This document shows, piece by piece, positions 49 through 23,335 of a stretch of DNA of 53,791 nt. The notes beneath the pieces are model-generated. The model ran no database searches, had not been told where the DNA came from, and saw only the letters and a program-made list of their open reading frames with translations. Each line of letters opens with the position of its first letter. The first letter of the stretch is position 1. A program made the translations under genes and the position numbers. Source of the DNA: Escherichia phage mEp010; sequence record PP180001. One strand, 5' to 3'.

Positions 49-144
49 TCTATCATTTCATATCGTGTCACATCGTCACCGCTTCGCGTTGATTTCAAAA
101 GAAATATTTATTCTATCGTGTCATATCGTTTTCCATCGTGTTAC
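49..144. repeat. Cluster of short direct repeats upstream of int (two ~32-bp imperfect blocks, 49-80 and 112-144, carrying ATCGTGT[CT]A-type 9-mers)
   Basis: TCTATC..TCATATCGT..CATCGT pattern occurs twice; ATCGTGTCA at 62-70 and 115-123, ATCGTGTTA at 135-143; position fits integrase arm-type or int promoter-regulatory sites. Confidence 0.45.
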
Positions 145-161
145 TATCCATGCGTAAAATG

Positions 162-185
162 TGTGTACCAAATAGTGACCAAATT
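162..185. repeat. 24-bp direct repeat, left copy (TGTGTACCAAATAGTGACCAAATT); candidate att core / prophage boundary
   Basis: Matches 53722-53745 at 23 of 24 positions; ends 1 nt before the int ATG at 186. Confidence 0.45.
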
Positions 186-1385
186 ATGCTTACAGATACC
201 AAATTACGAAACATTCACGGCAAGCCATACGACGGCCCGGAAGAAGTGCCGGACGCTGGCGGATTGTCTGCCAGGATAAGCCCGCGCGGCGTTATATCTT
301 TCCAGTATCGCTACCGATTCAACGGCAAGCCTCGACGGATGAAGATTGGCACATACGGAGAAATAACACTCAAAGAAGCGCGGGCGGCGGTGGCGGAGCA
401 TAAAGAATTGCTAAACTCAGGACGAGATCCATCGGTAGCAAAAAGAATGCACCTTTCCCGCGTTACGACACGGGCAACGGTTGAGGATATTGTAAGGGAG
501 TACATGGAATCGCCGCAGGCAAGGAACATGGTCAATTATAAGCAGGTTGAGGCCATGTTAGGTAAGCACGTCATAAAACCATACGGTAGCTATATAGTCG
601 ATGATATGGACGCTATGATGTGGGAGGGAGTTTTTAGAAAGGTAGCTAATGGCGGCGCACCAGTTCAGGCAGGTATAGTTCTCAACAGAATGAAGGCCGT
701 AATAAAATACGCCATTCGCCGCCGCCGCGTGGATCGTGACGACATATCATTACTGTGCGTTAAAGACGTAGGCAAAAAACCAGCGCAAGGCAAGCGCGTT
801 TTGTCAATACAGGAGATCCACCATCTAATCAGCCTTGTAGACAGTTCAAAAATGGCGAGGCTGAATCAGATATTGATGAAGCTGATTATATTTACCGGGT
901 GCAGGACAAGCGAACTGACAAACGCAAGGCGCGAGCATTTCGATCTTGATAGCTGCGTGTGGACTGTTCCGGGTGCATTGAGTAAGAACAGGAATGAGTT
1001 TAAACGCGGTTTATCGGACGTTAGCGTGGCTTTATTGCGTGAGGCTATGGATCTGCATAGCTTTGATTTTGTCTTCGTTCCTGTGCTTTCCGGAAGGGAT
1101 GTGGCGGTGGACAGAAGCGTGCCGAAAACAGCAGCGAGGGATTTAATGATGAGGATGGGCGGCGAGCCGTGGTCGTGTCACGATCTACGCCGCACCGTGA
1201 GGACAAACCTTTCAGCGCTTGGCGTTGCGCCTCACGTTTCGGAAAAGGTTTTGGGGCATAAGCTGGCTGGGATGTTGGCTATATACGATCAGTATGACTA
1301 TGTGAGGGAACAAATAGAGGCGATGAATAAGCTGGCTGATTATTACATGAAGCCCATTGATTTACAAAATGAAATAACGTCCTGA
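186..1385 (+). CDS. int: Tyrosine-type site-specific integrase (P4-like family)
   Basis: Track ORF 138-1385; Met17 at 186 gives the typical MLTDTKLRN N-terminus; C-terminal catalytic signature (TGCRTSEL, HDLRRT, LGHKLAGMLAIYDQYDY). Confidence 0.9.
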   Translation: MLTDTKLRNIHGKPYDGPEEVPDAGGLSARISPRGVISFQYRYRFNGKPRRMKIGTYGEITLKEARAAVAEHKELLNSGRDPSVAKRMHLSRVTTRATVEDIVREYMESPQARNMVNYKQVEAMLGKHVIKPYGSYIVDDMDAMMWEGVFRKVANGGAPVQAGIVLNRMKAVIKYAIRRRRVDRDDISLLCVKDVGKKPAQGKRVLSIQEIHHLISLVDSSKMARLNQILMKLIIFTGCRTSELTNARREHFDLDSCVWTVPGALSKNRNEFKRGLSDVSVALLREAMDLHSFDFVFVPVLSGRDVAVDRSVPKTAARDLMMRMGGEPWSCHDLRRTVRTNLSALGVAPHVSEKVLGHKLAGMLAIYDQYDYVREQIEAMNKLADYYMKPIDLQNEITS

Positions 1386-3888: not shown

Positions 3889-5304
3889 TTAAAAAGATGT
3901 GTTATTCTGATTGTTTCGTTGGTTAAAACGGCTTGTGCGATGATTCATTGACTGAATACACGCTGCGGCTGCGCGCGCCTGGTCGCATGGCAAGATATTA
4001 CCGTTGTCATCAAACCGCTGGTAAACAGTTCCAGACTTACCATGACGGTTTTTTGACACAATGATTTCCATGTATTCGCGGGCAACAGACTGCTCGTCGT
4101 AATACCCATCGCGGTAAACCATGATTATTCTGTCGGCATCTTGCTCAAGGTTGCCGGAATCACGCAGATCAGAATTATTAGGGCGCTTGTTTGGTCGTTC
4201 CTCAACTCGTCGTGATAATTGCGCTAGCGCTAACACTGGAACGCGCAATTCTTTTGCCATCATCTTCAACGACCATGACAATTGCCCAACGGCGAGATCA
4301 TGACGTTCTGCCTTAGCCAGCTTCATCAACCCTATGTAGTCAATCATTACCATACCCAGGTTGGGATGTTCCTGTTTCATCCGTTCCGTGGTGGCGCGTA
4401 TTTCCTCAACCGTTAACTGCGACGCGTCAACGATCCACACATCAAGATTAGCAAGTGCGCTCATACCCTGTCCGACATGCGCCCAACCCTCATCATCAAG
4501 TTTTACCGGATTGCGCAGGCAGTCAGTTGATAAATTACCAGCGCCAGCAATGGCCCGCTCAGTCATCTGATCGAGTGACATTTCAAGCGTGAAGAGCAAA
4601 ACGCCAACCCGCTGTTCTTTACTGCCAGGGTAAGGGCGTTCAGCGGCTGCGCGGGCAATTGCCAGCGCCAACGCAGATTTACCAGACCCAGGGCGTCCGG
4701 CGAGAAGTACCAAATCAGTAGCGTTAATGCCGCCCAACATTTCGTCGAGTGGTTCTATACCTGTTTTGATGTTGTCAGAATTGACACCGCATTCCATGCG
4801 CTTGCTTAAAACATCCGTATATTCCTGTACCGCATCGCGCAACAGAACCGGAATGATCTTATCTTTCGTTACCTTTAATTTTGAATACCGGGAATCAAAA
4901 TCTTTCATCGTCTCTTTGACGACCTCAAGCGTCCCCGTTTCCAGTTTGTAGCGCATATCGTCGATGAGTTCCAACATCTGCCGCCGCTGGTGCTCTTCAC
5001 GTAGTAGCTGTGCGTATCCCTTCAGGTTGGCAGCAGACGGGCACGATCGCGCCGTTTGCATTAGCGGTACGAAATTTTCATTACCAATCTCATCACCTAC
5101 CAGCAATGCATCGATGAGGTTCCTGTTTCTTGCTTGCGCCCGGATAATTTCAAAAGCCCGCTTATACAGCGGAATAGTGAACACTTCAGGATCAAGCGTA
5201 GCGAGAACATCTTGCGCGTTAGGAGTAAGGCCGCCCAACAGCAGCCCACCGATAACTGACGCCTCACGTTCCTGCCGTAGTGAGTTTATTTGCTCAGTTA
5301 CCAT
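3889..5304 (-). CDS. Replicative DNA helicase, DnaB family
   Basis: 471 aa; Walker A GRPGSGKSALALAIA, Walker B VMIDYIGLM, DnaB N-terminal domain. Confidence 0.9.
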   Translation of the reverse strand: MVTEQINSLRQEREASVIGGLLLGGLTPNAQDVLATLDPEVFTIPLYKRAFEIIRAQARNRNLIDALLVGDEIGNENFVPLMQTARSCPSAANLKGYAQLLREEHQRRQMLELIDDMRYKLETGTLEVVKETMKDFDSRYSKLKVTKDKIIPVLLRDAVQEYTDVLSKRMECGVNSDNIKTGIEPLDEMLGGINATDLVLLAGRPGSGKSALALAIARAAAERPYPGSKEQRVGVLLFTLEMSLDQMTERAIAGAGNLSTDCLRNPVKLDDEGWAHVGQGMSALANLDVWIVDASQLTVEEIRATTERMKQEHPNLGMVMIDYIGLMKLAKAERHDLAVGQLSWSLKMMAKELRVPVLALAQLSRRVEERPNKRPNNSDLRDSGNLEQDADRIIMVYRDGYYDEQSVAREYMEIIVSKNRHGKSGTVYQRFDDNGNILPCDQARAAAACIQSMNHRTSRFNQRNNQNNTSF

Positions 5305-5894
5305 TATGTCATTACCTCATGTTTACAAAATGTATTTTCGATTGGTAAAGAAATGCCGTGATTACTATGAAAGTTATATATTCTTTCTGCTTCTTTTCTT
5401 GCTTTCACGGCATCATCAAACGAATCACCGTAATAAACGTATATTGTTTTCTTTTTACCATCAGATCCCCTTATACCTATTTGCGCCCGCCATTTATGGG
5501 TTTTCTTGTTCCATGTAACGCCAACGCACCCACTAGTGTTATTTGATGGCATTATTTTATTTCTGTTATTTTCCTGCCTTGTTACCATTCTTAAATTTTC
5601 GATCCTATCGTCACCAGGGATATGGTTTATGTGGTCTATTTCCATTCCATCAGGAATAGGGCCGTTAAACATTTCCCAAATAATGCGGTGACGCCATGTA
5701 CAACAGATACCATTAACGCAGATAGTCCAATAGCCGCGATGATGCTTACTTCCAGCCACGCTACCTGCTTTTATTTTGTTATTTGCGCGGTTACAAGACC
5801 AATATAGAACGCCGTTCTTATAGGTAAATAAATCATCCCACATCATGACATCCCACCATTTCAGGTCTATATACAAAGCGACCAATTTCGCCAT
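5304..5894 (-). CDS. HNH homing endonuclease (HNH plus AP2-like domain)
   Basis: 196 aa; DHINHIPGDDRIENL...NNRNK HNH motif, GYW..CVNG and SGCVGVTWNKKTHKWRAQI AP2-like repeats; wedged between replication genes, overlapping both neighbours. Confidence 0.8.
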   Translation of the reverse strand: MAKLVALYIDLKWWDVMMWDDLFTYKNGVLYWSCNRANNKIKAGSVAGSKHHRGYWTICVNGICCTWRHRIIWEMFNGPIPDGMEIDHINHIPGDDRIENLRMVTRQENNRNKIMPSNNTSGCVGVTWNKKTHKWRAQIGIRGSDGKKKTIYVYYGDSFDDAVKARKEAERIYNFHSNHGISLPIENTFCKHEVMT

Positions 5895-7360: not shown

Positions 7361-8368
7361 TCAAAGAGCGCCACATCGTGTATCACGTAGCGTTTTTGGT
7401 TTAAGCAGGAAATCAAGTGTCGCTATGAAGCCATTGCCGAAGTAAAAATCTGAAGCCGTGTTTTTGAACGTTTCAAAGTAGGCGACAAAGCCGTTGATGC
7501 TTTTGTCTTTCAGGTAGTCAGTGAACGCATAAATCTTGCGTTCAAGATCCCGATCCAGTTCGGCAGGTGGCAACAGGCCATCAAACGTGCTGTTAAATGC
7601 CTCCACTACGTCGGCAGCGTTTGCAGTGGCTGACAGTTTGCGCCATTTTTCAGCATCAGCCAGATACCCATCAAATTTAGTTACCCGGCAAATGTTTATA
7701 GGCTTAGGTGTTCCACCACGGCTACGCCATTGTGTTAAAGCCCACTCAATCACTAACGTGATCTCACCCTCCGTATACGCTTTACGTGTTTTTGTTTCTG
7801 TCAGTAGTTCTACGAATGGCTTAGCATCACGACATTTGCATCCTGCCTTGTCGTTGTAGAAGGCCAGGCAACGCAATGCCGCCAGGTTAACCTCCCGATC
7901 TTCTTCGCTGATAGACCGGTCTTTTTCCAATACACGGAGTGTATTGTTTTTAATGTTCTCTTTACTGGTTATATATGACTGGTTAGGGTGACTCTGTGAC
8001 ACTACCCCCGGTGACTCTGTGTCACTACCCCGGTGACTCTGTGTCACTACCCCCGGTGTCACTGTGACACTACCATGCAATGACGGAAGGACTATTACAT
8101 AGAAATTACTAGTTTGCTCTTTTCCTCCGATTAAATATCTTGGTTGTTTAATCAACAACCCTTTTTCACAAAGTGAGTCTACAGCCCTCATAGCTGTTCT
8201 TTTGCTGATCTCACACTCCTTTGCTATGTGATGGTAAGAAGGATAACACTCTCCGTTATCATTAGCGTTATCAGCTAACTTCAACAGCACCAGTTTGTGC
8301 ATTGGGTCGCCGACCTCAGTATGGAAGACCTCTACCATTAGCCGCATACTCATAAGCATTAACCTCAT
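7361..8368 (-). CDS. Replication initiator (O-like; winged-HTH N-domain, origin iterons inside gene)
   Basis: 335 aa; iteron array embedded in the coding sequence as in lambda O; adjacent to helicase. Confidence 0.7.
   Translation of the reverse strand: MRLMLMSMRLMVEVFHTEVGDPMHKLVLLKLADNANDNGECYPSYHHIAKECEISKRTAMRAVDSLCEKGLLIKQPRYLIGGKEQTSNFYVIVLPSLHGSVTVTPGVVTQSHRGSDTESPGVVSQSHPNQSYITSKENIKNNTLRVLEKDRSISEEDREVNLAALRCLAFYNDKAGCKCRDAKPFVELLTETKTRKAYTEGEITLVIEWALTQWRSRGGTPKPINICRVTKFDGYLADAEKWRKLSATANAADVVEAFNSTFDGLLPPAELDRDLERKIYAFTDYLKDKSINGFVAYFETFKNTASDFYFGNGFIATLDFLLKPKTLRDTRCGAL
7986..8074. repeat. Origin iterons: four tandem ~22-bp repeats (GGTGACTCTGTGTCACTACCCC), each with a GTGAC-N5-GTCAC palindrome, flanked by an AT-rich stretch (7940-7985)
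   Basis: Seen directly; encodes the GVVTQSH-repeat linker of the initiator. Confidence 0.75.
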
Positions 8369-8374
8369 GACGAA

Positions 8375-8620
8375 CTAAAACATTAACTGATAAACGCAGA
8401 AGAAACCTGGCAGCTGGCTGATTAGGCCGCTTCTTTTCAGTTGATGCAGTGCAGAGATAGTGTCGCGTAACGAAATTTCGCACATTTCCGCGATCTCTTC
8501 TGGCGTTACTTCGCTTTTGCCGTTGCATCCAGCCTTTGTTGCCAGTGCAATTAAGATGAGTTTTTGCGCCGGATCATTGTTATTCAGGCGAATATCAAAA
8601 GCCTTGCGCACGTAATACAT
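8375..8620 (-). CDS. Winged-HTH regulatory protein at the Cro position (paralogous to initiator N-domain)
   Basis: 81 aa; first gene of leftward operon, divergent from repressor; HTH segment EEIAEMCEISLRDTISALHQLKRSGLI parallels the initiator N-terminus. Confidence 0.55.
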   Translation of the reverse strand: MYYVRKAFDIRLNNNDPAQKLILIALATKAGCNGKSEVTPEEIAEMCEISLRDTISALHQLKRSGLISQLPGFFCVYQLMF

Positions 8621-8727
8621 ATTCTTTCTCCTATGATTAGAGTGAACGCGCGGGCGGGCATCCCATTAGCATTAGATAGCAGTGACTGACCGCTCAACAG
8701 ATCCCGCCGTTGCGTGATATTTGTTTT

Positions 8728-8761
8728 TCGCTTCGCAGCGACACCAGATTTTTAAAGAGCT
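8728..8761 (-). promoter_or_regulatory. nutR-like site (boxA AGCTCTTTA plus boxB-like hairpin) on the leftward transcript
   Basis: Minus strand reads GCTCTTTAAAAATCTGGT then hairpin TCGC-TGCGAA-GCGA; same 15-mer as the nutL-like site. Confidence 0.5.
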
Positions 8762-8769
8762 TAAGGAAT

Positions 8770-8923
8770 TGGCCTTTTGTGCTTTCCTTTATCTTTTTTC
8801 TTGCATCATTGCAACTATGGCCTTACCTTGTCTGCAAGTTTACATAATGGCTTTAACAGGTCAAGGCTTGAAAAACACGTTTTGTGACTTGCATCAAACT
8901 TTTTTAGGTTATAGGGTAGCGAC
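8770..8923. promoter_or_regulatory. Divergent immunity-region promoter/operator segment
   Basis: Leftward TTGACC-16-TAAACT (8837-8864, minus); repressor ATG only ~10 nt after a TTATAG -10-like hexamer (leaderless-type); repeated CTTGCATCA half-sites at 8800-8808 and 8888-8896. Confidence 0.4.
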
Positions 8924-9571
8924 ATGAAAACAAAATGGTATGACTTAGCAAAGCAGCTCATGCGGGCGCAGGGCATGAGTCAGGATTCATTGGCTGATCT
9001 CATGGGGATAACCAAAGGTGGCCTTTCGCACTGGCTGAACGGTCGCCGTGAGCCAAATCTTGAAGATATTGCGCGGATCATGCGGGCGCTTGGGCGTCGG
9101 CAGTTTACTGTCACACATGACGGGATGGTTATCGATGATTCTGTTTCTAACACGTTACCGGGAGCGCCACCGCGTGATTTAGGCAGTTACCCGGTTGTTG
9201 ACTGGAAGGATGTAGCAAACAATATGGAAGGCACATGCCGATCAACATTGCCACACATTACTACTAGCGTTATTTGTTCGGATGATAGTTATTGGCTGGT
9301 TGCTAAAGGTGAATCAATGAACGCACCGCAGGGGTTAAGCATCCCGGCGGGGACTATGATACTCGTTGACCCGCACGCGCCAGCTATTGACGGAAAACTT
9401 GTTATAGCACAACTGGAGGAAGGGCAGATACCTACGTTTAAACAGTTGATTATTGATGGAGGCCGAAAACTTTTGCGTTCACTGAATCCGTTGTATCCGC
9501 CGATCCCTATGAATCCAGAATCAAAAATCATAGGCGTGGTGGTTGATGCGAAGATCGTAAACCTGCCATAA
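8924..9571 (+). CDS. cI: CI/C2-type lysogeny repressor (HTH plus S24 LexA-like peptidase domain)
   Basis: 215 aa; C-terminal domain resembles P22 C2/lambda CI (GESMNAPQGLSIPAGTMILVDP, KLVIAQLEEGQIPTFKQL, KIIGVVVDAKIVNLP). Confidence 0.9.
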   Translation: MKTKWYDLAKQLMRAQGMSQDSLADLMGITKGGLSHWLNGRREPNLEDIARIMRALGRRQFTVTHDGMVIDDSVSNTLPGAPPRDLGSYPVVDWKDVANNMEGTCRSTLPHITTSVICSDDSYWLVAKGESMNAPQGLSIPAGTMILVDPHAPAIDGKLVIAQLEEGQIPTFKQLIIDGGRKLLRSLNPLYPPIPMNPESKIIGVVVDAKIVNLP

Positions 9572-9577
9572 ACAATA

Positions 9578-9601
9578 GCCGCCGGATGGCGGCTTTTCTT
9601 T
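9578..9601 (+). terminator. Rho-independent terminator after repressor gene
   Basis: GCCGCC-GGAT-GGCGGC hairpin followed by TTTTCTTT. Confidence 0.7.
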
Positions 9602-9695
9602 GTCTGAAAAAACACCAAAACGTAAACAGAAAACGCTATTTATTGTTTAAATATCAATAGCATATAAAATATTTTAAAAAAGTATACAAAATGGA

Positions 9696-9724
9696 TTGAC
9701 TTGGTGTTTTACGGGGCGTATATT
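9696..9724 (+). promoter_or_regulatory. Rightward early promoter (PL-equivalent): TTGACT-17 bp-TATATT
   Basis: Near-consensus sigma-70 hexamers with 17-bp spacer; recurrent motif GTATACAAAATGG abuts the -35. Confidence 0.65.
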
Positions 9725-9978
9725 GCGAATCAAAGGAAGGGCGTAGGTAACAAAAGCAGCTTCCTGGCACTTTAAAAATCAGGCTTAACACCTTGTCAAC
9801 CGTGGAGTAACTCCCCAATGGGGGACCGAAAGCGGCACTGATAACAAGGCGCATGGGGTGTTTAAAGCGTTACATCCCCCACGAAACCGCACGCAGGGCG
9901 ACGAGTCAGCTTGCTTGGAGTGAGCAAGGTCACGCCGGGAACGGCGATGATTGCGGGATTAGTTGAAAGATGTTAAGC

Positions 9979-10016
9979 CGCTCATTAAAAATCTGGTCAG
10001 CCGCTGGAAGTGCGGC
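9979..10016 (+). promoter_or_regulatory. nutL-like site (boxA CGCTCATTA plus boxB-like hairpin GCCGC-TGGAAGT-GCGGC)
   Basis: 58 nt upstream of the N-like gene; shares GCTC(A/T)TTAAAAATCTGGT with the nutR-like site. Confidence 0.55.
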
Positions 10017-10073
10017 AATTAACGAAGATGATTTTTTTATTAAGTATCATCAAGGATATACGGAGATCAGATT

Positions 10074-10364
10074 ATGAGCGTTACAATTATGTATGGAAAA
10101 TGTGATAGCAAAATGAACGCCAGGGAACGCAGAAGGATAAAAAGAGAAAACGAAAGAAAATCATCACCTGCAATTAATAAAACAGACAATGTGGATAAAG
10201 CTATTCGATTTGCAAACGAGGAAAGGTGCAAACCAAATAGCATTAAAGAACGTCGCAAAGGTTCAGTAAAATGGTATACGGAAAATGAAAGCGGCAACTA
10301 CTACCACGCAACGCAACCACGCCATTTAGGGGAGAAACCCCTGGATAAAGTCCGTTACCATTAA
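10074..10364 (+). CDS. N: N-like antitermination protein (arginine-rich motif)
   Basis: 96 aa; N-terminus MSVTIMYGK..NARERRRIKRENERK parallels P22 gp24 / lambda N ARM; first gene after the nutL-like site. Confidence 0.7.
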   Translation: MSVTIMYGKCDSKMNARERRRIKRENERKSSPAINKTDNVDKAIRFANEERCKPNSIKERRKGSVKWYTENESGNYYHATQPRHLGEKPLDKVRYH

Positions 10365-10513
10365 TACAAAATGTAAACATTCGGAGGTTACATTATGGTT
10401 ATCGAGGCGCTTCAATTCAAACTGGCAGTAGCGGAAATGCTTCATGATGCCGAAATGTGGAGCGCCGCGAATAAAGCCTTATACATAGTGTTAACAGCGA
10501 AGGAGATTAAAGA

Positions 10514-11155
10514 GTGAAAACAGAGTTACACAAAAAGCTGTGGACGATTCAACAAACGTTGAACGCGCCGAAAAATCAGCGTAATAATTTCGGTGGGTAC
10601 AATTACAGGTCGGCGGAGGATATTTTAGAGGCGGTTAAGCCACTGCTTCAAAATATCACGCTGACTGTTAGCGATGAAATCGTCCTGATCGGCAATCGCT
10701 ATTATGTGAAGGCCACAGCTACGCTAAGCGACGGCGAAGATGAAATTGCGGTAACTGCTTACGCCAGGGAAGAAGAAAGCAAGAAGGGAATGGACGCAAG
10801 CCAGTTAACTGGCGCGACATCAAGTTATGCGCGTAAATACGCGTTGAACGGATTGTTCTGTATTGATGATGCGCGAGATCCTGATACTGACGCATACGCC
10901 AAGCAGACAGGCCAGCAGCCTCGCCAACAGAAAAATCCACCAAAACAACAACCACAGCCGCCGAAAGCGCCGCCAAATCCTGATGAAGTATTAGCACGTT
11001 TCTGTGATGCGGCAGCGAAAGCGCCGGACGCTAATAAGTTGCGCGAGATATTCGGGAAGTGCTGGAAGCTACTTCCTAAAGATTCAGAGCAGCAACAGAA
11101 AGCAAAAGACTGTTATGACATTCGCTTAAAAGAGCTTAAAGGGGAGATCAGTTAA
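10514..11155 (+). CDS. erf: Erf single-strand annealing protein
   Basis: 213 aa, GTG start after AAGGAG; close match to remembered P22 Erf (LNAPKNQ..F..Y.YRS.EDILE.VKPLL, DEIVLIG.RYYVKATAT, QLTGATSSYARKY). Confidence 0.9.
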   Translation: MKTELHKKLWTIQQTLNAPKNQRNNFGGYNYRSAEDILEAVKPLLQNITLTVSDEIVLIGNRYYVKATATLSDGEDEIAVTAYAREEESKKGMDASQLTGATSSYARKYALNGLFCIDDARDPDTDAYAKQTGQQPRQQKNPPKQQPQPPKAPPNPDEVLARFCDAAAKAPDANKLREIFGKCWKLLPKDSEQQQKAKDCYDIRLKELKGEIS

Positions 11156-12107: not shown

Positions 12108-12217
12108 ATATTGCAAAAATTGCCGCATTGGCGGCGGCGTTGGCTGTCGCGGCGATATATCTTAGCGTATCGCTTTATATTACGGTGGCGATCATCAAGC
12201 TGATTACTACTATGTGA
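12104..12217 (+). CDS. Possible 37-aa single-pass membrane peptide
   Basis: ATGA-overlapped with upstream stop; MNIAKIAALAAALAVAAIYLSVSLYITVAIIKLITTM. Confidence 0.35.
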   Translation: MNIAKIAALAAALAVAAIYLSVSLYITVAIIKLITTM

Positions 12218-16077: not shown

Positions 16078-16561
16078 CAGGTTATTAGCCTGCGTTTATG
16101 TCGCCGTTTTCGTGATCATCAACCTTATTGTTAACCATTGCGGCCCGTGGGTAATTCCGATCACCACGGTAGCCGCTGTGTGTGTCAATATGATGATCCG
16201 TGACTTCTTGTTATATGACGGCGGCCTAAAATGGTCGGCTACAACATGCGCCGCCGCTGGCGCAATCACGGTGCTGATAAATTACGACGCCGGAATGGTA
16301 GCGATCGCGTCATTCGTTGCGGTTGTTTCCGGTGCGCTTATTTCTGGCGGCGTTTACCGGGTTTTACCTGGTGACTTTGATTCGAAACGCTGGCCTGCAA
16401 ATATAGCGTCCGCCATTGGCGATGCGTTAATTTTTCCTACGCTATCGTTTATGGCATTTATGCCTGAAATATCAGCTATGCAATTCATCTCAAAAATGGC
16501 AGCGGTAACGGTGATCACTATCATCATGCGCCGCTATTTCACGTTTGAAGGCAGAAAATGA
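16049..16561 (+). CDS. Multi-pass inner-membrane protein, possibly VUT/YhhQ-like (queuosine-precursor transporter family)
   Basis: About five predicted TM helices; loose resemblance only; ATGA-coupled to the cytosine methyltransferase gene. Confidence 0.35.
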   Translation: MTQMKKVAIDRLLACVYVAVFVIINLIVNHCGPWVIPITTVAAVCVNMMIRDFLLYDGGLKWSATTCAAAGAITVLINYDAGMVAIASFVAVVSGALISGGVYRVLPGDFDSKRWPANIASAIGDALIFPTLSFMAFMPEISAMQFISKMAAVTVITIIMRRYFTFEGRK

Positions 16562-17340
16562 GCAAGGCTAAACACTGGTTTAATAATTGGCTTAGAAGTT
16601 GGGTGGTATGGTCGCTGTACGACGGCAGCGGGTACGCAGTTAAAGATTGGGCGGAAGCTGGATATAAGTGCTATTGCTTCAACTATGACGGCGCAAATCA
16701 CGGCGATTATGAAGGCGTTAAAATCATTCATCCAAACATTGAATACGTTAACGTATGGATTGACAGCCATTTCCTGGTAATGTTCTCCCCTGAATTGTCT
16801 GTTTATCCAGAGCCTGACATTATCTTGGGCTTCCCTCCATGCGACGATCTCGCTGTGTCTGGCGCTCGCTGGTTCGCTGATAAACGGAAAAAAGATCCTG
16901 ACTTCCAGGTGAAGGCGGCGAATAGCGCAAAACTGGTAGAAAAACTGGCGGATATGCACAACGTGCCGTGGATGGTGGAAAATCCGGTGGGAGCACTGTC
17001 AACGCTATGGCGCAAACCTGATTTTATCTTCAACCCGTGCGCTTACGGTGGCTACCTGCCTGAAGATGACAAACATCCTGCTTTCCCTGATGTTTACCCG
17101 CCGCGAGACGCGTACACGAAGAAAACTTGTATTTGGTGCGGCAACGGACTTAAACAGCCGCTTTTTAGACCTGTAGATCTTAACTCTGGTGATAACCCTG
17201 GGTGGGCGAAAACCGGAGGCAGGACGAAACGAACAAAGATGATCCGCTCACTAACGCCGCGTGGCTTTGCCCGTGCTGTATTCCTGGCTAACGACCGGGC
17301 CATCAATCGTACTACGCTCAACCGCGTTTTACCGGACTGA
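16558..17340 (+). CDS. DNA cytosine-5 methyltransferase (short form)
   Basis: Motif I-like LYDGSG, PC motif GFPPCDDLAVSG, ENV motif MVENPVGAL. Confidence 0.65.
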   Translation: MSKAKHWFNNWLRSWVVWSLYDGSGYAVKDWAEAGYKCYCFNYDGANHGDYEGVKIIHPNIEYVNVWIDSHFLVMFSPELSVYPEPDIILGFPPCDDLAVSGARWFADKRKKDPDFQVKAANSAKLVEKLADMHNVPWMVENPVGALSTLWRKPDFIFNPCAYGGYLPEDDKHPAFPDVYPPRDAYTKKTCIWCGNGLKQPLFRPVDLNSGDNPGWAKTGGRTKRTKMIRSLTPRGFARAVFLANDRAINRTTLNRVLPD

Positions 17341-17499
17341 AGTTTACAAAATGGCGTCATTGCGTGATGTGGATCACATAATGGCGCTTTTCACCTTGTT
17401 CTGGTGTATCCATTTTGTATACTTCAAACAAGCAAAATGCTCTTTAAAAATCCGGCAGCGCTGAAATGCGTAGAAATCACCTGAAAAGGAGAGAGCATT

Positions 17500-17676
17500 A
17501 TGCCTTTTGATAATTACCAATGGCATGACGACTATGAACGAGAAAGCGTCATGCGTGCAATGTGCAATGTATGCAGCACGAAGAAAGGAGACTGCAACGA
17601 GTGCAACGAATGTTTAGATCATTGGCTAAGGGCCGGACACGCCGAAAGGCTGAACGAAACAGAGAATCAAAAATAA
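17500..17676 (+). CDS. Small Cys-rich protein (58 aa; CNVC..CNECNEC)
   Basis: AAGGAG SD 7 nt upstream; below ORF-track cut-off; immediately upstream of ninG. Confidence 0.4.
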   Translation: MPFDNYQWHDDYERESVMRAMCNVCSTKKGDCNECNECLDHWLRAGHAERLNETENQK

Positions 17677-17690
17677 TCGGGGTGGTTTTT

Positions 17691-18296
17691 ATGAAAAACC
17701 CTAAAAAACCCATAAAACGCCGTTGCAAATGCTGCGGCGTTTTTTTTGAGCCTAAATATCACAATCAAACGTGGTGCAGTGATGAATGTCTGGAAGAACT
17801 GAAGTTTGACCAGCTATGCCGCGACCGTGAAAAGGCTATGAAGGCTATGGAGCGGAAGAAACGCCGTGATAGCCAGAGGGAAGAACGCAACCGGAAGCGG
17901 AAGCAGTTACACCCGCGAAGTTACTGGATTCACCAGGCGCAAACTGTATTTAACGCATACATACGCGAACGTGATGCAGGACAACCGTGTATATCTTGCG
18001 GGACTTACTACGGTGATCAATGCGGTTGGGATGCTGGGCATTACAGGACAGTAGCGGCGGCTGGGCATCTTCGATTCAACGAGGATAACGTGCATCGTCA
18101 ATGCAAACAATGCAATCAGAGACTGGACGGTAACATATCTGCTTATCGCCCAGCGCTGATTAGAAAAATTGGCCTGGCTAGGGTGGAAGCGCTGGAGAAC
18201 AACAACGAAATTCACAAATGGACTATCGAAGAATGTAAGGAGATCGCAAAAGTTTATCAGGCTAAGTTAAACGCCTTAAGGAGAAAGGCGGCATGA
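17691..18296 (+). CDS. ninG: NinG / Rap recombination protein
   Basis: Close match to lambda NinG (RRCK..C...F.P, PRSYWI.QAQ..NA.IRERD...PCISCGT, WDAGHYRT.AAA..LRFNE.N.H.QC..CN, WTIEECK); Met44 of track ORF 17562-18296. Confidence 0.9.
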   Translation: MKNPKKPIKRRCKCCGVFFEPKYHNQTWCSDECLEELKFDQLCRDREKAMKAMERKKRRDSQREERNRKRKQLHPRSYWIHQAQTVFNAYIRERDAGQPCISCGTYYGDQCGWDAGHYRTVAAAGHLRFNEDNVHRQCKQCNQRLDGNISAYRPALIRKIGLARVEALENNNEIHKWTIEECKEIAKVYQAKLNALRRKAA

Positions 18297-23110: not shown

Positions 23111-23209
23111 AAAGCGTGATCTACCTCGCAAAGTATACGAAATGGCATTGTTTCGGCAGTGCCGTTTTGTTATATATAAGTCAAAGAAGACGGAAGGGGA
23201 GACAAGAAA

Positions 23210-23335
23210 ATGAACGCTAACGCTAAATATCCGGCCTGGGTTTTTGAGTTATATGCCCGCTATTTTGAATTGCTTGCACCAGATGAAGAAGCATTAAGCA
23301 TTGACGAATACGCTGAGTGTTTAGGGTTCAAATGA
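23210..23335 (+). CDS. Small hypothetical protein (41 aa)
   Basis: GGAGACAAG SD; preceded by TTGTTT-17-TATATA promoter-like element (23148-23176) and the recurrent motif. Confidence 0.3.
   Translation: MNANAKYPAWVFELYARYFELLAPDEEALSIDEYAECLGFK

Follow-up and report, generated by a model that had tools for sequence, protein, structure and literature searches.

Is early transcription controlled by antitermination of the N/nut type in a temperate coliphage that is non-lambdoid by gene order and sequence? This question is raised by Escherichia phage mEp010 (sequence record PP180001), whose 53,791 nucleotides, called the window below, contain around positions 8728-10364 a repressor gene, boxA-like motifs followed by hairpins, and a gene for a small arginine-rich protein. 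We consider it highly probable that this region is the immunity and early-control module of a phage of the mEpimmI group, with antitermination by the N-like protein Gp17 acting at nut sites. An N-like antiterminator and its nut sites are already known from the near-identical phage mEp021, for which they were published in 2023-2025; the identification made here is correct and not new. Early antitermination in mEp021 is described by Negrete-Mendez et al. 2025 (PMC11893012), citing Valencia-Toxqui et al. 2023 (Arch Virol 168:92).

The mEpimmI group comprises Nus-dependent, non-lambdoid temperate coliphages (PMC11893012). In the phage collection searched, positions 8600-10400 of the window are 97.3% identical to mEp515, 92.1% to mEp021 and about 92-93% to mEp044, mEp554 and mEp013, and no other phage of the collection matches this interval. 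Alignment of the first 25 kb begins at base 1-3 of the mEp044 and mEp013 genomes (73-90% aligned, about 91% identity); the window is therefore, judging by these alignments, a complete genome of an mEp021-like temperate coliphage of the mEpimmI group. Membership in the group is also seen in identity and synteny with mEp021, mEp515 and mEp044 through the immunity region, and in three nut sites, all present in this genome at the published relative positions. A related prophage occurs in about 35 of 5,426 complete E. coli genomes.

Three nut sites with covarying boxB hairpins

Each of the two early transcripts carries a boxA followed by a hairpin, as proposed in the initial annotation of this DNA. 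On the minus strand, nutL (8760..8728) consists of boxA GCTCTTTAAAAA (8760..8749), spacer TCTGGTG and boxB TCGCU-GCGA-AGCGA (8741..8728). On the plus strand, nutR1 (9980-10016) consists of boxA GCTCATTAAAAA (9980-9991), spacer TCTGGTCA and boxB GCCGC-UGGAAGU-GCGGC (10000-10016). These sites had been regarded as a pair, but their count is three: nutR2 (17439-17471, plus strand), with boxA GCTCTTTAAAAA (17439-17450), spacer TCCGGCA and boxB GCGC-UGAAAU-GCGU (17458-17471), had been overlooked. The labels had moreover been inverted, since in the published nomenclature the leftward site beside the repressor gene is nutL and the site preceding gp17 is nutR1. According to PMC11893012, nutL lies upstream of the repressor gene, nutR1 upstream of gp17 and nutR2 downstream of a cytosine methyltransferase gene. 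In the window, nutR2 is located between a methyltransferase open reading frame (ORF; 16558-17340) and the position of the NinF-like ORF annotated in mEp021.

The two sites noticed at first share a block of sequence that had been recorded as a 15-mer, T(A/T)TTAAAAATCTGGT. The block itself is real, but its first base is C and it extends further: GCTC(T/A)TTAAAAATCTGGT is identical at 17 of 18 positions between 8760..8743 (minus strand) and 9980-9997 (plus strand). When up to three mismatches are allowed, this 18-mer is present in four copies in the window against 0.09 expected, a number reached by none of 100 shuffled sequences. The extra copies are found at 17439-17456, within nutR2, and at 9767-9784 on the plus strand, where a degenerate boxA-like sequence (GCACTTTAAAAATCAGGC, three mismatches to the 18-mer) lies inside the rightward leader, at the position of the single consensus boxA of relatives with a short leader (see below). 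The boxA copies of the three nut sites match the NusB/NusE consensus at 10-11 of 12 positions and are followed by a hairpin 6-8 nt farther. They are 1-2 positions off the rrn consensus TGCTCTTTAACAA, which is found unaltered in short-leader relatives. In the mEp021 record, the boxA elements of nutR1 and nutR2 are 7947 nt apart. The 2023 abstract of Valencia-Toxqui et al. is said to give this distance as 'more than 7.9 kbp'. Agreement of the two values indicates that the published nutR1 corresponds to 9980-10016 of the window and not to the degenerate copy at 9767.

Variants of the nut sites were gathered from about 100 related loci. Stems remain paired among relatives in many different sequences (GCCGC/GCGGC, GCUAC/GUAGC, UGCAC/GUGCA, GCACU/AGUGC, UCGC/GCGA, GCGC/GCGU, CCGC/GCGG and ACGC/GCGU). 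Variant nutR1 sites contribute GCUAC/GUAGC, UGCAC/GUGCA, GCACU/AGUGC and UCGC/GCGA, accompanied by loops of UGAAAU type, and the outer stem pair of nutR2 is G.U, C-G or A-U. Alignment of 15 distinct hairpins revealed that four of five stem pairs are changed on both sides. The resulting covariation score (0.455) was reached by none of 500 shuffles, which gave 0.153, and partners slid along the alignment scored at most 0.109. Loops follow a common rule as well: U-GAAA-U/A, U-GCGA-A/U, U-GCAA-U and U-GUGA-A all contain GNRA tetraloops, with GCGA, GCAA and GUGA occurring in nutL of the relatives and GAAA in nutR2 and variant nutR1 sites. No T run follows any of the nut hairpins, which rules them out as terminators.

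Two observations concern nutR1 itself. In four related loci (L003, L004, L100 and L049), homology stops inside nutR1 right after boxA (at about 9998). Their module from boxB through the N-terminal half of Gp17 is divergent (boxB GCUAC-UGAAAU-GUAGC; protein identity about 70%), but no change is seen in nutL. The break marks a recombination junction inside the nut site. Further, RNAalifold predicts 7 bp between the degenerate boxA (9767-9773, GCACUUU) and part of the nutR1 boxB, namely its loop and 3' arm (10007-10014, GGAAGUGC); the pairing is not kept by relatives that have the other type of boxB and is therefore probably coincidental.

Gp17 and its likeness to N

The first rightward gene (10074-10364, plus strand), preceded by a GGAG ribosome-binding site, encodes a 96-residue protein that is 94.8% identical to mEp021 Gp17. 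It is matched over its full length by the profile phrog_271, 'anti-termination protein N-like' (E=2e-13). Its arginine-rich motif (ARM), NARERRRIKRENERK, spans residues 15-29 and contains arginines R17, R19, R20, R21 and R24. Four of them (R17, R19, R20 and R24) are invariant or nearly so among 17 family members, and the same four were reported to be conserved across all 48 genomes (PMC11893012, section 3.5). The initial reading of this gene as coding for an N-like protein with an ARM thus stands, by orthology. Internal Met14 was considered as an alternative start that would place the ARM at the N-terminus, as in lambda, and was excluded: this residue is Leu or Ile among relatives. As Met14 is not conserved, the 13-residue N-terminal extension is real. 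The family is narrow: its 47 clusters (identity of at least 62%) come exclusively from E. coli or gut metagenomes, and none of them has a name. We also asked if ARM and boxB covary in specificity in divergent Gp17 variants (L003, L004 and L049), but this idea was rejected, because their nutL is the same and the ARM core NAR-RRR-KR is unchanged.

Activity of the system is known from mEp021. In section 3.5 and the discussion of PMC11893012, Gp17 of that phage is presented as lambda-N-like and responsible for early antitermination via nutL, nutR1 and nutR2. The same source reports terminator read-through dependent on the protein, on nut and on Nus factors, as well as dependence on the ARM, for Gp17 of mEp021.

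Several points weigh against the assignment to the N/nut type. A search of PDB sequences showed no pairwise similarity to the solved chains, lambda N and P22 N among them, tblastn gave no match to lambdoid N genes, Gp17 has no NCBIfam match, and the Pfam family N_peptide (PF25694) remains below threshold (17.1 bits, cutoff 27.9). As the pairwise and Pfam searches were negative, homology to classical N proteins is carried by one PHROG profile together with the ARM. The AlphaFold model is uninformative, with a mean predicted local distance difference test score (pLDDT) of 56.8 and the ARM as the sole moderately confident helix; disorder in most of the protein would be compatible with it. With its sequence UGGAAGU, the loop common in nutR1 departs from the GNRA rule and does not fit the pentaloop of lambda and P22 boxB either. 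Promoter positions and transcript starts (see below) are predictions, and experimental support for Gp17 activity is second-hand, coming through PMC11893012.

The likeness to N and nut might accordingly be a coincidence, the hairpins being attenuators, terminators or RNase III sites and the 96-residue protein an unrelated nucleic-acid-binding protein. The missing pairwise match to a classical N and the Pfam score agree with such an explanation. It is nevertheless very improbable: near-consensus boxA stands at a fixed distance from a hairpin in three places, the hairpins lack T runs, phrog_271 matches Gp17, and reporter and deletion experiments are published for Gp17 of mEp021 (PMC11893012). Taken together, the data point to an N/nut-like function, whereas membership of Gp17 in the N family is only partly shown by sequence.

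Repressor and early promoters

The ORF at 8924-9571 (plus strand) encodes a CI-like repressor of 215 residues, orthologous to Rep021 of mEp021. In accordance with the initial assignment to S24-type repressors, it consists of a helix-turn-helix (HTH) domain (HTH_3, residues 10-57, E=5e-13) and a Peptidase_S24 domain (residues 113-207, E=1.7e-18), and the catalytic Ser/Lys motifs GESM and FKQL are visible in its translation. In the linker (residues ~58-110), no Ala-Gly or Cys-Gly self-cleavage site (AG or CG) is present. The same lack is noted in PMC11893012, where absence of UV induction is reported. Rep021 provides immunity against the whole group (PMC11893012, section 3.3).

Promoter-like sites are located on both sides of the repressor gene and point away from it, which bears out the divergent arrangement suggested at first. 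Consensus scanning predicts a leftward early promoter (PL-like, TTGACC-16-TAAACT, 8864..8837, minus strand) and a rightward one (PR-like, TTGACT-17-TATATT, 9696-9724, plus strand), the latter with 10 of 12 consensus matches. In 31 distinct relatives the PL hexamers are invariant and the spacer is variable; PR displays the same pattern among relatives, as would be expected of real promoters. Between the repressor gene and PR, an intrinsic terminator, t1, is predicted at 9577-9602 (plus strand). It has a 7-bp GC-rich stem and a T run, and the stem scores on the minus strand too. Terminator annotation is present at this place in the mEp021 and mEp515 records, and t1 is listed among terminators shown by experiment (PMC11893012).

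Two -10-like hexamers precede the repressor ATG at 8924, namely TATAGG (8910-8915, 8 nt away) and TAGGGT (8912-8917, 6 nt away). The initial annotation proposed a leaderless transcript of the PRM type on this basis. Its geometry is indeed there (8912-8926, plus strand): TAGGGT, a weak hexamer with three of six matches, is followed after 6 nt by ATG, and the stretch TAGGGT-AGCGAC-ATG is invariant among relatives apart from the start codon. An in-frame TAG at 8912-8914 rules out a start farther upstream, and a later start would shorten the HTH domain. The AUG, however, is not conserved, as six of 31 distinct relatives (mEp021, which is locus L001, and L039, L041, L045, L049 and L099) have TTG instead. 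The sequence AGGG, which could serve as a weak Shine-Dalgarno sequence, lies 7 nt upstream of the start. Since leaderless translation in E. coli strongly depends on a 5' AUG, the TTG starts make a conserved leaderless repressor mRNA unlikely, and a leaderless start in mEp010 is conjectural. In GenBank, the mEp021 repressor has 198 residues and begins at a later Met that cuts into the HTH domain; this is probably a wrong start, the annotated protein being truncated because the true start codon there is TTG.

Proposed course of early transcription and gene order

We propose the following order of events. In a lysogen, the CI-like HTH/S24 repressor would silence the outward early promoters. On derepression, the rightward transcript would carry first nutR1 and then gp17. 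The arginine-rich helix of Gp17 would bind the boxB hairpins and boxA would recruit host NusB/NusE, and the complex, together with NusA and NusG, would make RNA polymerase resistant to terminators. The leftward transcript could then pass via nutL through the replication genes toward int. The rightward one, modified at nutR1 and reinforced at nutR2, could pass several intrinsic terminators to reach the genes for NinG, RusA and the Q-like protein. Terminator-like hairpins are indeed found downstream of nut sites, at 12151, 14409 and 14587, and another lies between 17354 and 17390.

Gene order agrees with what was described at first: replication genes run leftward toward int, and recombination, nin-type and Q-like genes lie rightward of gp17. 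NinB is the exception, for it is located on the left arm, unlike other nin-type genes. From nutL, the left arm encodes an 81-residue winged-helix protein, a 335-residue replication initiator, a 376-residue protein, an HNH endonuclease, a DnaB-type helicase and NinB, beyond which lies the integrase gene (138-1385, plus strand). From nutR1, the right arm encodes Gp17, a weakly Kil-like 40-residue ORF, Erf, SSB, methyltransferases and, after nutR2, NinG, RusA and the Q-like protein (phrog_127, E=3e-78). No recognisable candidate for Cro is present in the region; the first leftward gene resembles the N-terminal domain of replication initiators.

Three of these neighbours have features of their own. 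The 81-residue gene (8375-8620, minus strand) is a stand-alone winged-helix domain (HTH_36), and the same domain opens the adjacent 335-residue replication protein (7361-8368, minus strand). The 40-residue ORF directly after gp17 (10395-10517, plus strand) has sub-threshold likeness to lambda Kil (Pfam 20.7 vs 27.6 bits; phrog_2055, E=0.0017). The HNH endonuclease (5304-5894, minus strand), encoded between the replication genes and that for the DnaB helicase, contains an AP2-like domain and may be a homing endonuclease.

An optional 198-nt insert in the rightward leader

The interval between the rightward promoter and nutR1 (9725-9978) had been taken as a 250-nt leader free of ORFs and with several hairpins. 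Hairpins are present, but the interval contains a 37-codon ATG ORF (9853-9966), and its length is not constant, since about 198 nt are missing from a quarter of the relatives. Alignment of long and short leaders delimits a facultative insert of 198 nt (9782-9979, plus strand) that is predicted to form a multi-helix RNA. Measured between the promoter anchor and the start of gp17, the leader is long (375-403 nt) in 38 of 50 loci and short (162-188 nt) in the other 12. The insert is carried by mEp021. The short leader is found in plaque-forming mEp044, as read from its sequence, in mEp013 and mEp554, as deduced from two-piece matches, and in the most divergent family members. In the short form, a consensus boxA lies about 37 nt past the promoter and precedes boxB. 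In the long form, the homologous position is occupied by the degenerate boxA GCACTTTAAAAATCAGGC, after which come the 198-nt block and the working boxA and boxB. A recent origin of the short form by deletion is excluded, because its boxA does not combine parts of both long-form copies. The insert, optional and probably structured as RNA, is not required by the antitermination system and is apparently undescribed in published accounts of mEp021-type phages.

We wondered if the insert belongs to a known class of elements. No Rfam 15 family matched at gathering score anywhere in the window, and 9690-10080 gave at E<=10 only a chance-level snoRNA (E=7.4). ARAGORN found no tRNA or tmRNA. Relatives outside the phage group were found neither in the phage collection searched in distant mode nor in the 5,426 E. 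coli genomes, and a pattern anchored at the termini of the insert gave only four chance matches in 185,579 species genomes, with identity within the range of shuffled sequences. RefSeq annotates nothing at the insert in the 31 E. coli genomes that carry it. The 37-codon ORF, annotated as gp16 in mEp021, was rejected as a gene: its variable sites are distributed 8/4/6 by codon position, thus with no bias to the third position, and the changes are mostly non-synonymous, it has no PHROG match, its stop codon is lost in one relative, and it is not annotated in RefSeq. Nor is gp16 the haemolysis protein Ipe, as ipe is a separate 234-nt gene (mEp021 17562-17795). A hammerhead-like core (CUGAUAA ... 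GAAAC) spotted by eye was likewise rejected, for it differs from CUGAUGA and no Rfam ribozyme matches.

The insert may be a functional structured RNA of the PR leader, either an element that controls gp17 expression through RNA processing or stability, or one that modulates how the complex assembles at nutR1, similar in role to the RNase III-sensitive structure of the lambda N leader. We regard this as quite possible, though short of probable. The predicted fold is stable (minimum free energy -76.3 kcal/mol, z = -3.9) and is closed by an invariant 9-bp helix, GGCUUAACA/UGUUAAGCC. One helix, the hairpin CUUGCUU-GGAGU-GAGCAAG at 9910-9928 (plus strand), is the sole one with compensatory changes in the alignment of relatives. 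Three of its pairs are changed on both sides in L003, L004 and L100 (CUUGCU/AGCAAG to AUCACU/AGUGGU), and a U-A pair is U-G in six sequences, a change compatible with wobble pairing. Pairing over the insert is kept at 99.7% against 98.6% in shuffles, none of 500 of which reached this value. Read from the opposite strand, several of the G.U pairs would become A.C mismatches, a pattern that favours an RNA transcribed in the PR direction. Conservation of 93-99.5% in the 31 E. coli genomes and the internal ORF devoid of coding signature agree with this function. On the other hand, nine of ten predicted helices never vary and are hence uninformative, three single changes break predicted pairs, and the compensatory changes probably represent one evolutionary event. 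The insert has neither an Rfam match nor a homologue outside the phage group, and 12 of 50 relatives lack it, among them the plaque-forming phages mEp013, mEp044 and mEp554, so that it is dispensable.

Alternatively, the insert may be a neutral relic of insertion or illegitimate recombination right after boxA that brought in or duplicated a second boxA, its conservation reflecting recent spread. This explanation is possible, if tentative. It accounts for the imperfect direct repeats of the boxA block that flank the insert (GCACTTTAAAAATCAGG and GCTCATTAAAAATCTGG), for its inverted-repeat-like ends (9 bp perfect, about 19 bp imperfect), for its patchy presence in the group, and for the perfect rrn-type boxA TGCTCTTTAACAA at the equivalent point of short-leader relatives. 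A target duplication of 15-17 bp would, however, be unusually long for insertion sequences. Unlike an active repeat element, the insert is present in one copy per genome and nowhere else in the 5,426 E. coli genomes, and the compensatory changes and the G.U pattern suggest constraint at the RNA level. Overall, a functional but dispensable leader RNA and a neutral insertion relic appear about equally likely.

A leader acting like the put RNA of HK022, i.e. conferring terminator resistance in cis and free of protein, and so supplementing or replacing Gp17 rightward, is hardly credible. It would fit a stable structured RNA just downstream of an early promoter, but put elements consist of two stems in about 70 nt, far less than 198 nt, viable relatives dispense with the insert, and no curated RNA family resembles it. 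Gp17 is, moreover, needed for read-through in insert-bearing mEp021, as reported in PMC11893012.

A repeated 15-mer and a candidate third early promoter

Comparison of shared k-mers revealed a second repeated sequence, the non-palindromic 15-mer AAGTWTACAWAATGG, with seven matches at up to two mismatches in the window against 0.54 expected. Copies are located at the -10 of PL (8836-8850) and adjoining the -35 of PR (9680-9694). Two others (17340-17354 and, on the minus strand, 17410-17424) form an inverted pair around the terminator-like hairpin before nutR2, and a weak copy lies at 8924-8938. The 15-mer stands at or beside each predicted early promoter and may be an operator of the CI-like repressor, or a site of another regulator. 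A search for palindromic operators near PL and PR found only an AT-rich palindrome (9663-9678), and a generic repeat finder was uninformative. One further copy (23131-23145, one mismatch) is followed by TTGTTT-17-TATATA (both within 23131-23180, plus strand) in the layout of PR, upstream of an ORF starting at 23211, with no boxA after it. This promoter-like site may be another one controlled by the repressor.

A sequence of 29 nt paralogous to PL (17396-17424, plus strand; TTGTTC-16-TATACT) comes just after the terminator-like hairpin (~17354-17390) and precedes the boxA of nutR2 by about 15 nt. Matches to the pattern TTGNNCTGNTNNANCCATTWTGTAWACTT, of which 0 are expected, are confined to PL and this site, and in 37 distinct relatives the hexamers are conserved and the spacer is variable. 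This suggests a third early promoter, here called PR2, which would provide nutR2 with its own transcript.

Both additions can be combined. The insert would then be a structured RNA that entered nutR1 between its boxA and boxB, left a relic boxA, and tunes Gp17 synthesis or complex assembly. Each nut site would have its own repressor-controlled promoter marked by AAGTWTACAWAATGG, and nutR2 would open a third early operon instead of acting as a booster in the middle of one. As a whole, this combined proposal is rather unlikely to hold.

Comparison with known systems

The Gp17/nut system of mEp010 is the same as that of mEp021: the proteins are near-identical, the three nut sites occupy the same genomic positions, and repressor, gene order and immunity group are alike. 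Differences are allelic only, such as the nutR1 boxA (GCTCATTAAAAA in mEp010, ...AACAA in mEp021) and the repressor start (ATG and TTG, respectively). The integrase differs too, matching the mEp044/mEp013 end and not mEp021.

With lambda, the system has in common an ARM peptide, the order boxA-spacer-boxB, host Nus factors and an antiterminator gene that comes first behind a nut site of an early transcript, as well as GNRA-type boxB loops, a CI-like repressor between outward early promoters and a Q-like late regulator downstream. It differs in lacking pairwise sequence similarity, in having three nut sites and in the absence of a recognisable Cro. The ARM starts at residue 15, in contrast to residue 1 in lambda N, and boxB tetraloops closed by U.U or U-A stand in place of the GAAAA pentaloop of lambda. 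The antiterminator gene is codirectional with the repressor gene and lies on the recombination/nin/Q arm, with the replication genes on the opposite arm toward int.

Similarity to rrn antitermination concerns boxA: the exact 13-mer TGCTCTTTAACAA precedes boxB in short-leader relatives. The rrn system itself employs no phage ARM protein, and its boxB is dispensable. Similarity to the lambda N leader consists in a long, structured, untranslated leader on the antiterminator mRNA. The lambda structure, which is RNase III-sensitive, is fixed and located between nutL and the N start, whereas that of mEp010 and its relatives is optional, lies upstream of the nut site and is flanked by two boxA copies. 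A role of RNase III for the present leader is conjectural.

Conclusions

The value of the main finding lies in the correct annotation of a published system; an N/nut module is recognisable from raw sequence even in a phage that is non-lambdoid by gene order and sequence. Natural variation in about 100 loci adds to this by supporting the boxB hairpins through covariation and by a U-GNRA-U/A loop rule. Also added is the optional 198-nt insertion in the PR leader, with partial evidence of RNA structure. The optional insert and the possible third promoter might be the only parts worth experiments. Phages with naturally long and short leaders offer a means to learn what a structured leader does to an N-type system. 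The 15-mer and the PL paralogue, if they truly are an operator and a third early promoter at nutR2, would alter interpretation of the third nut site.

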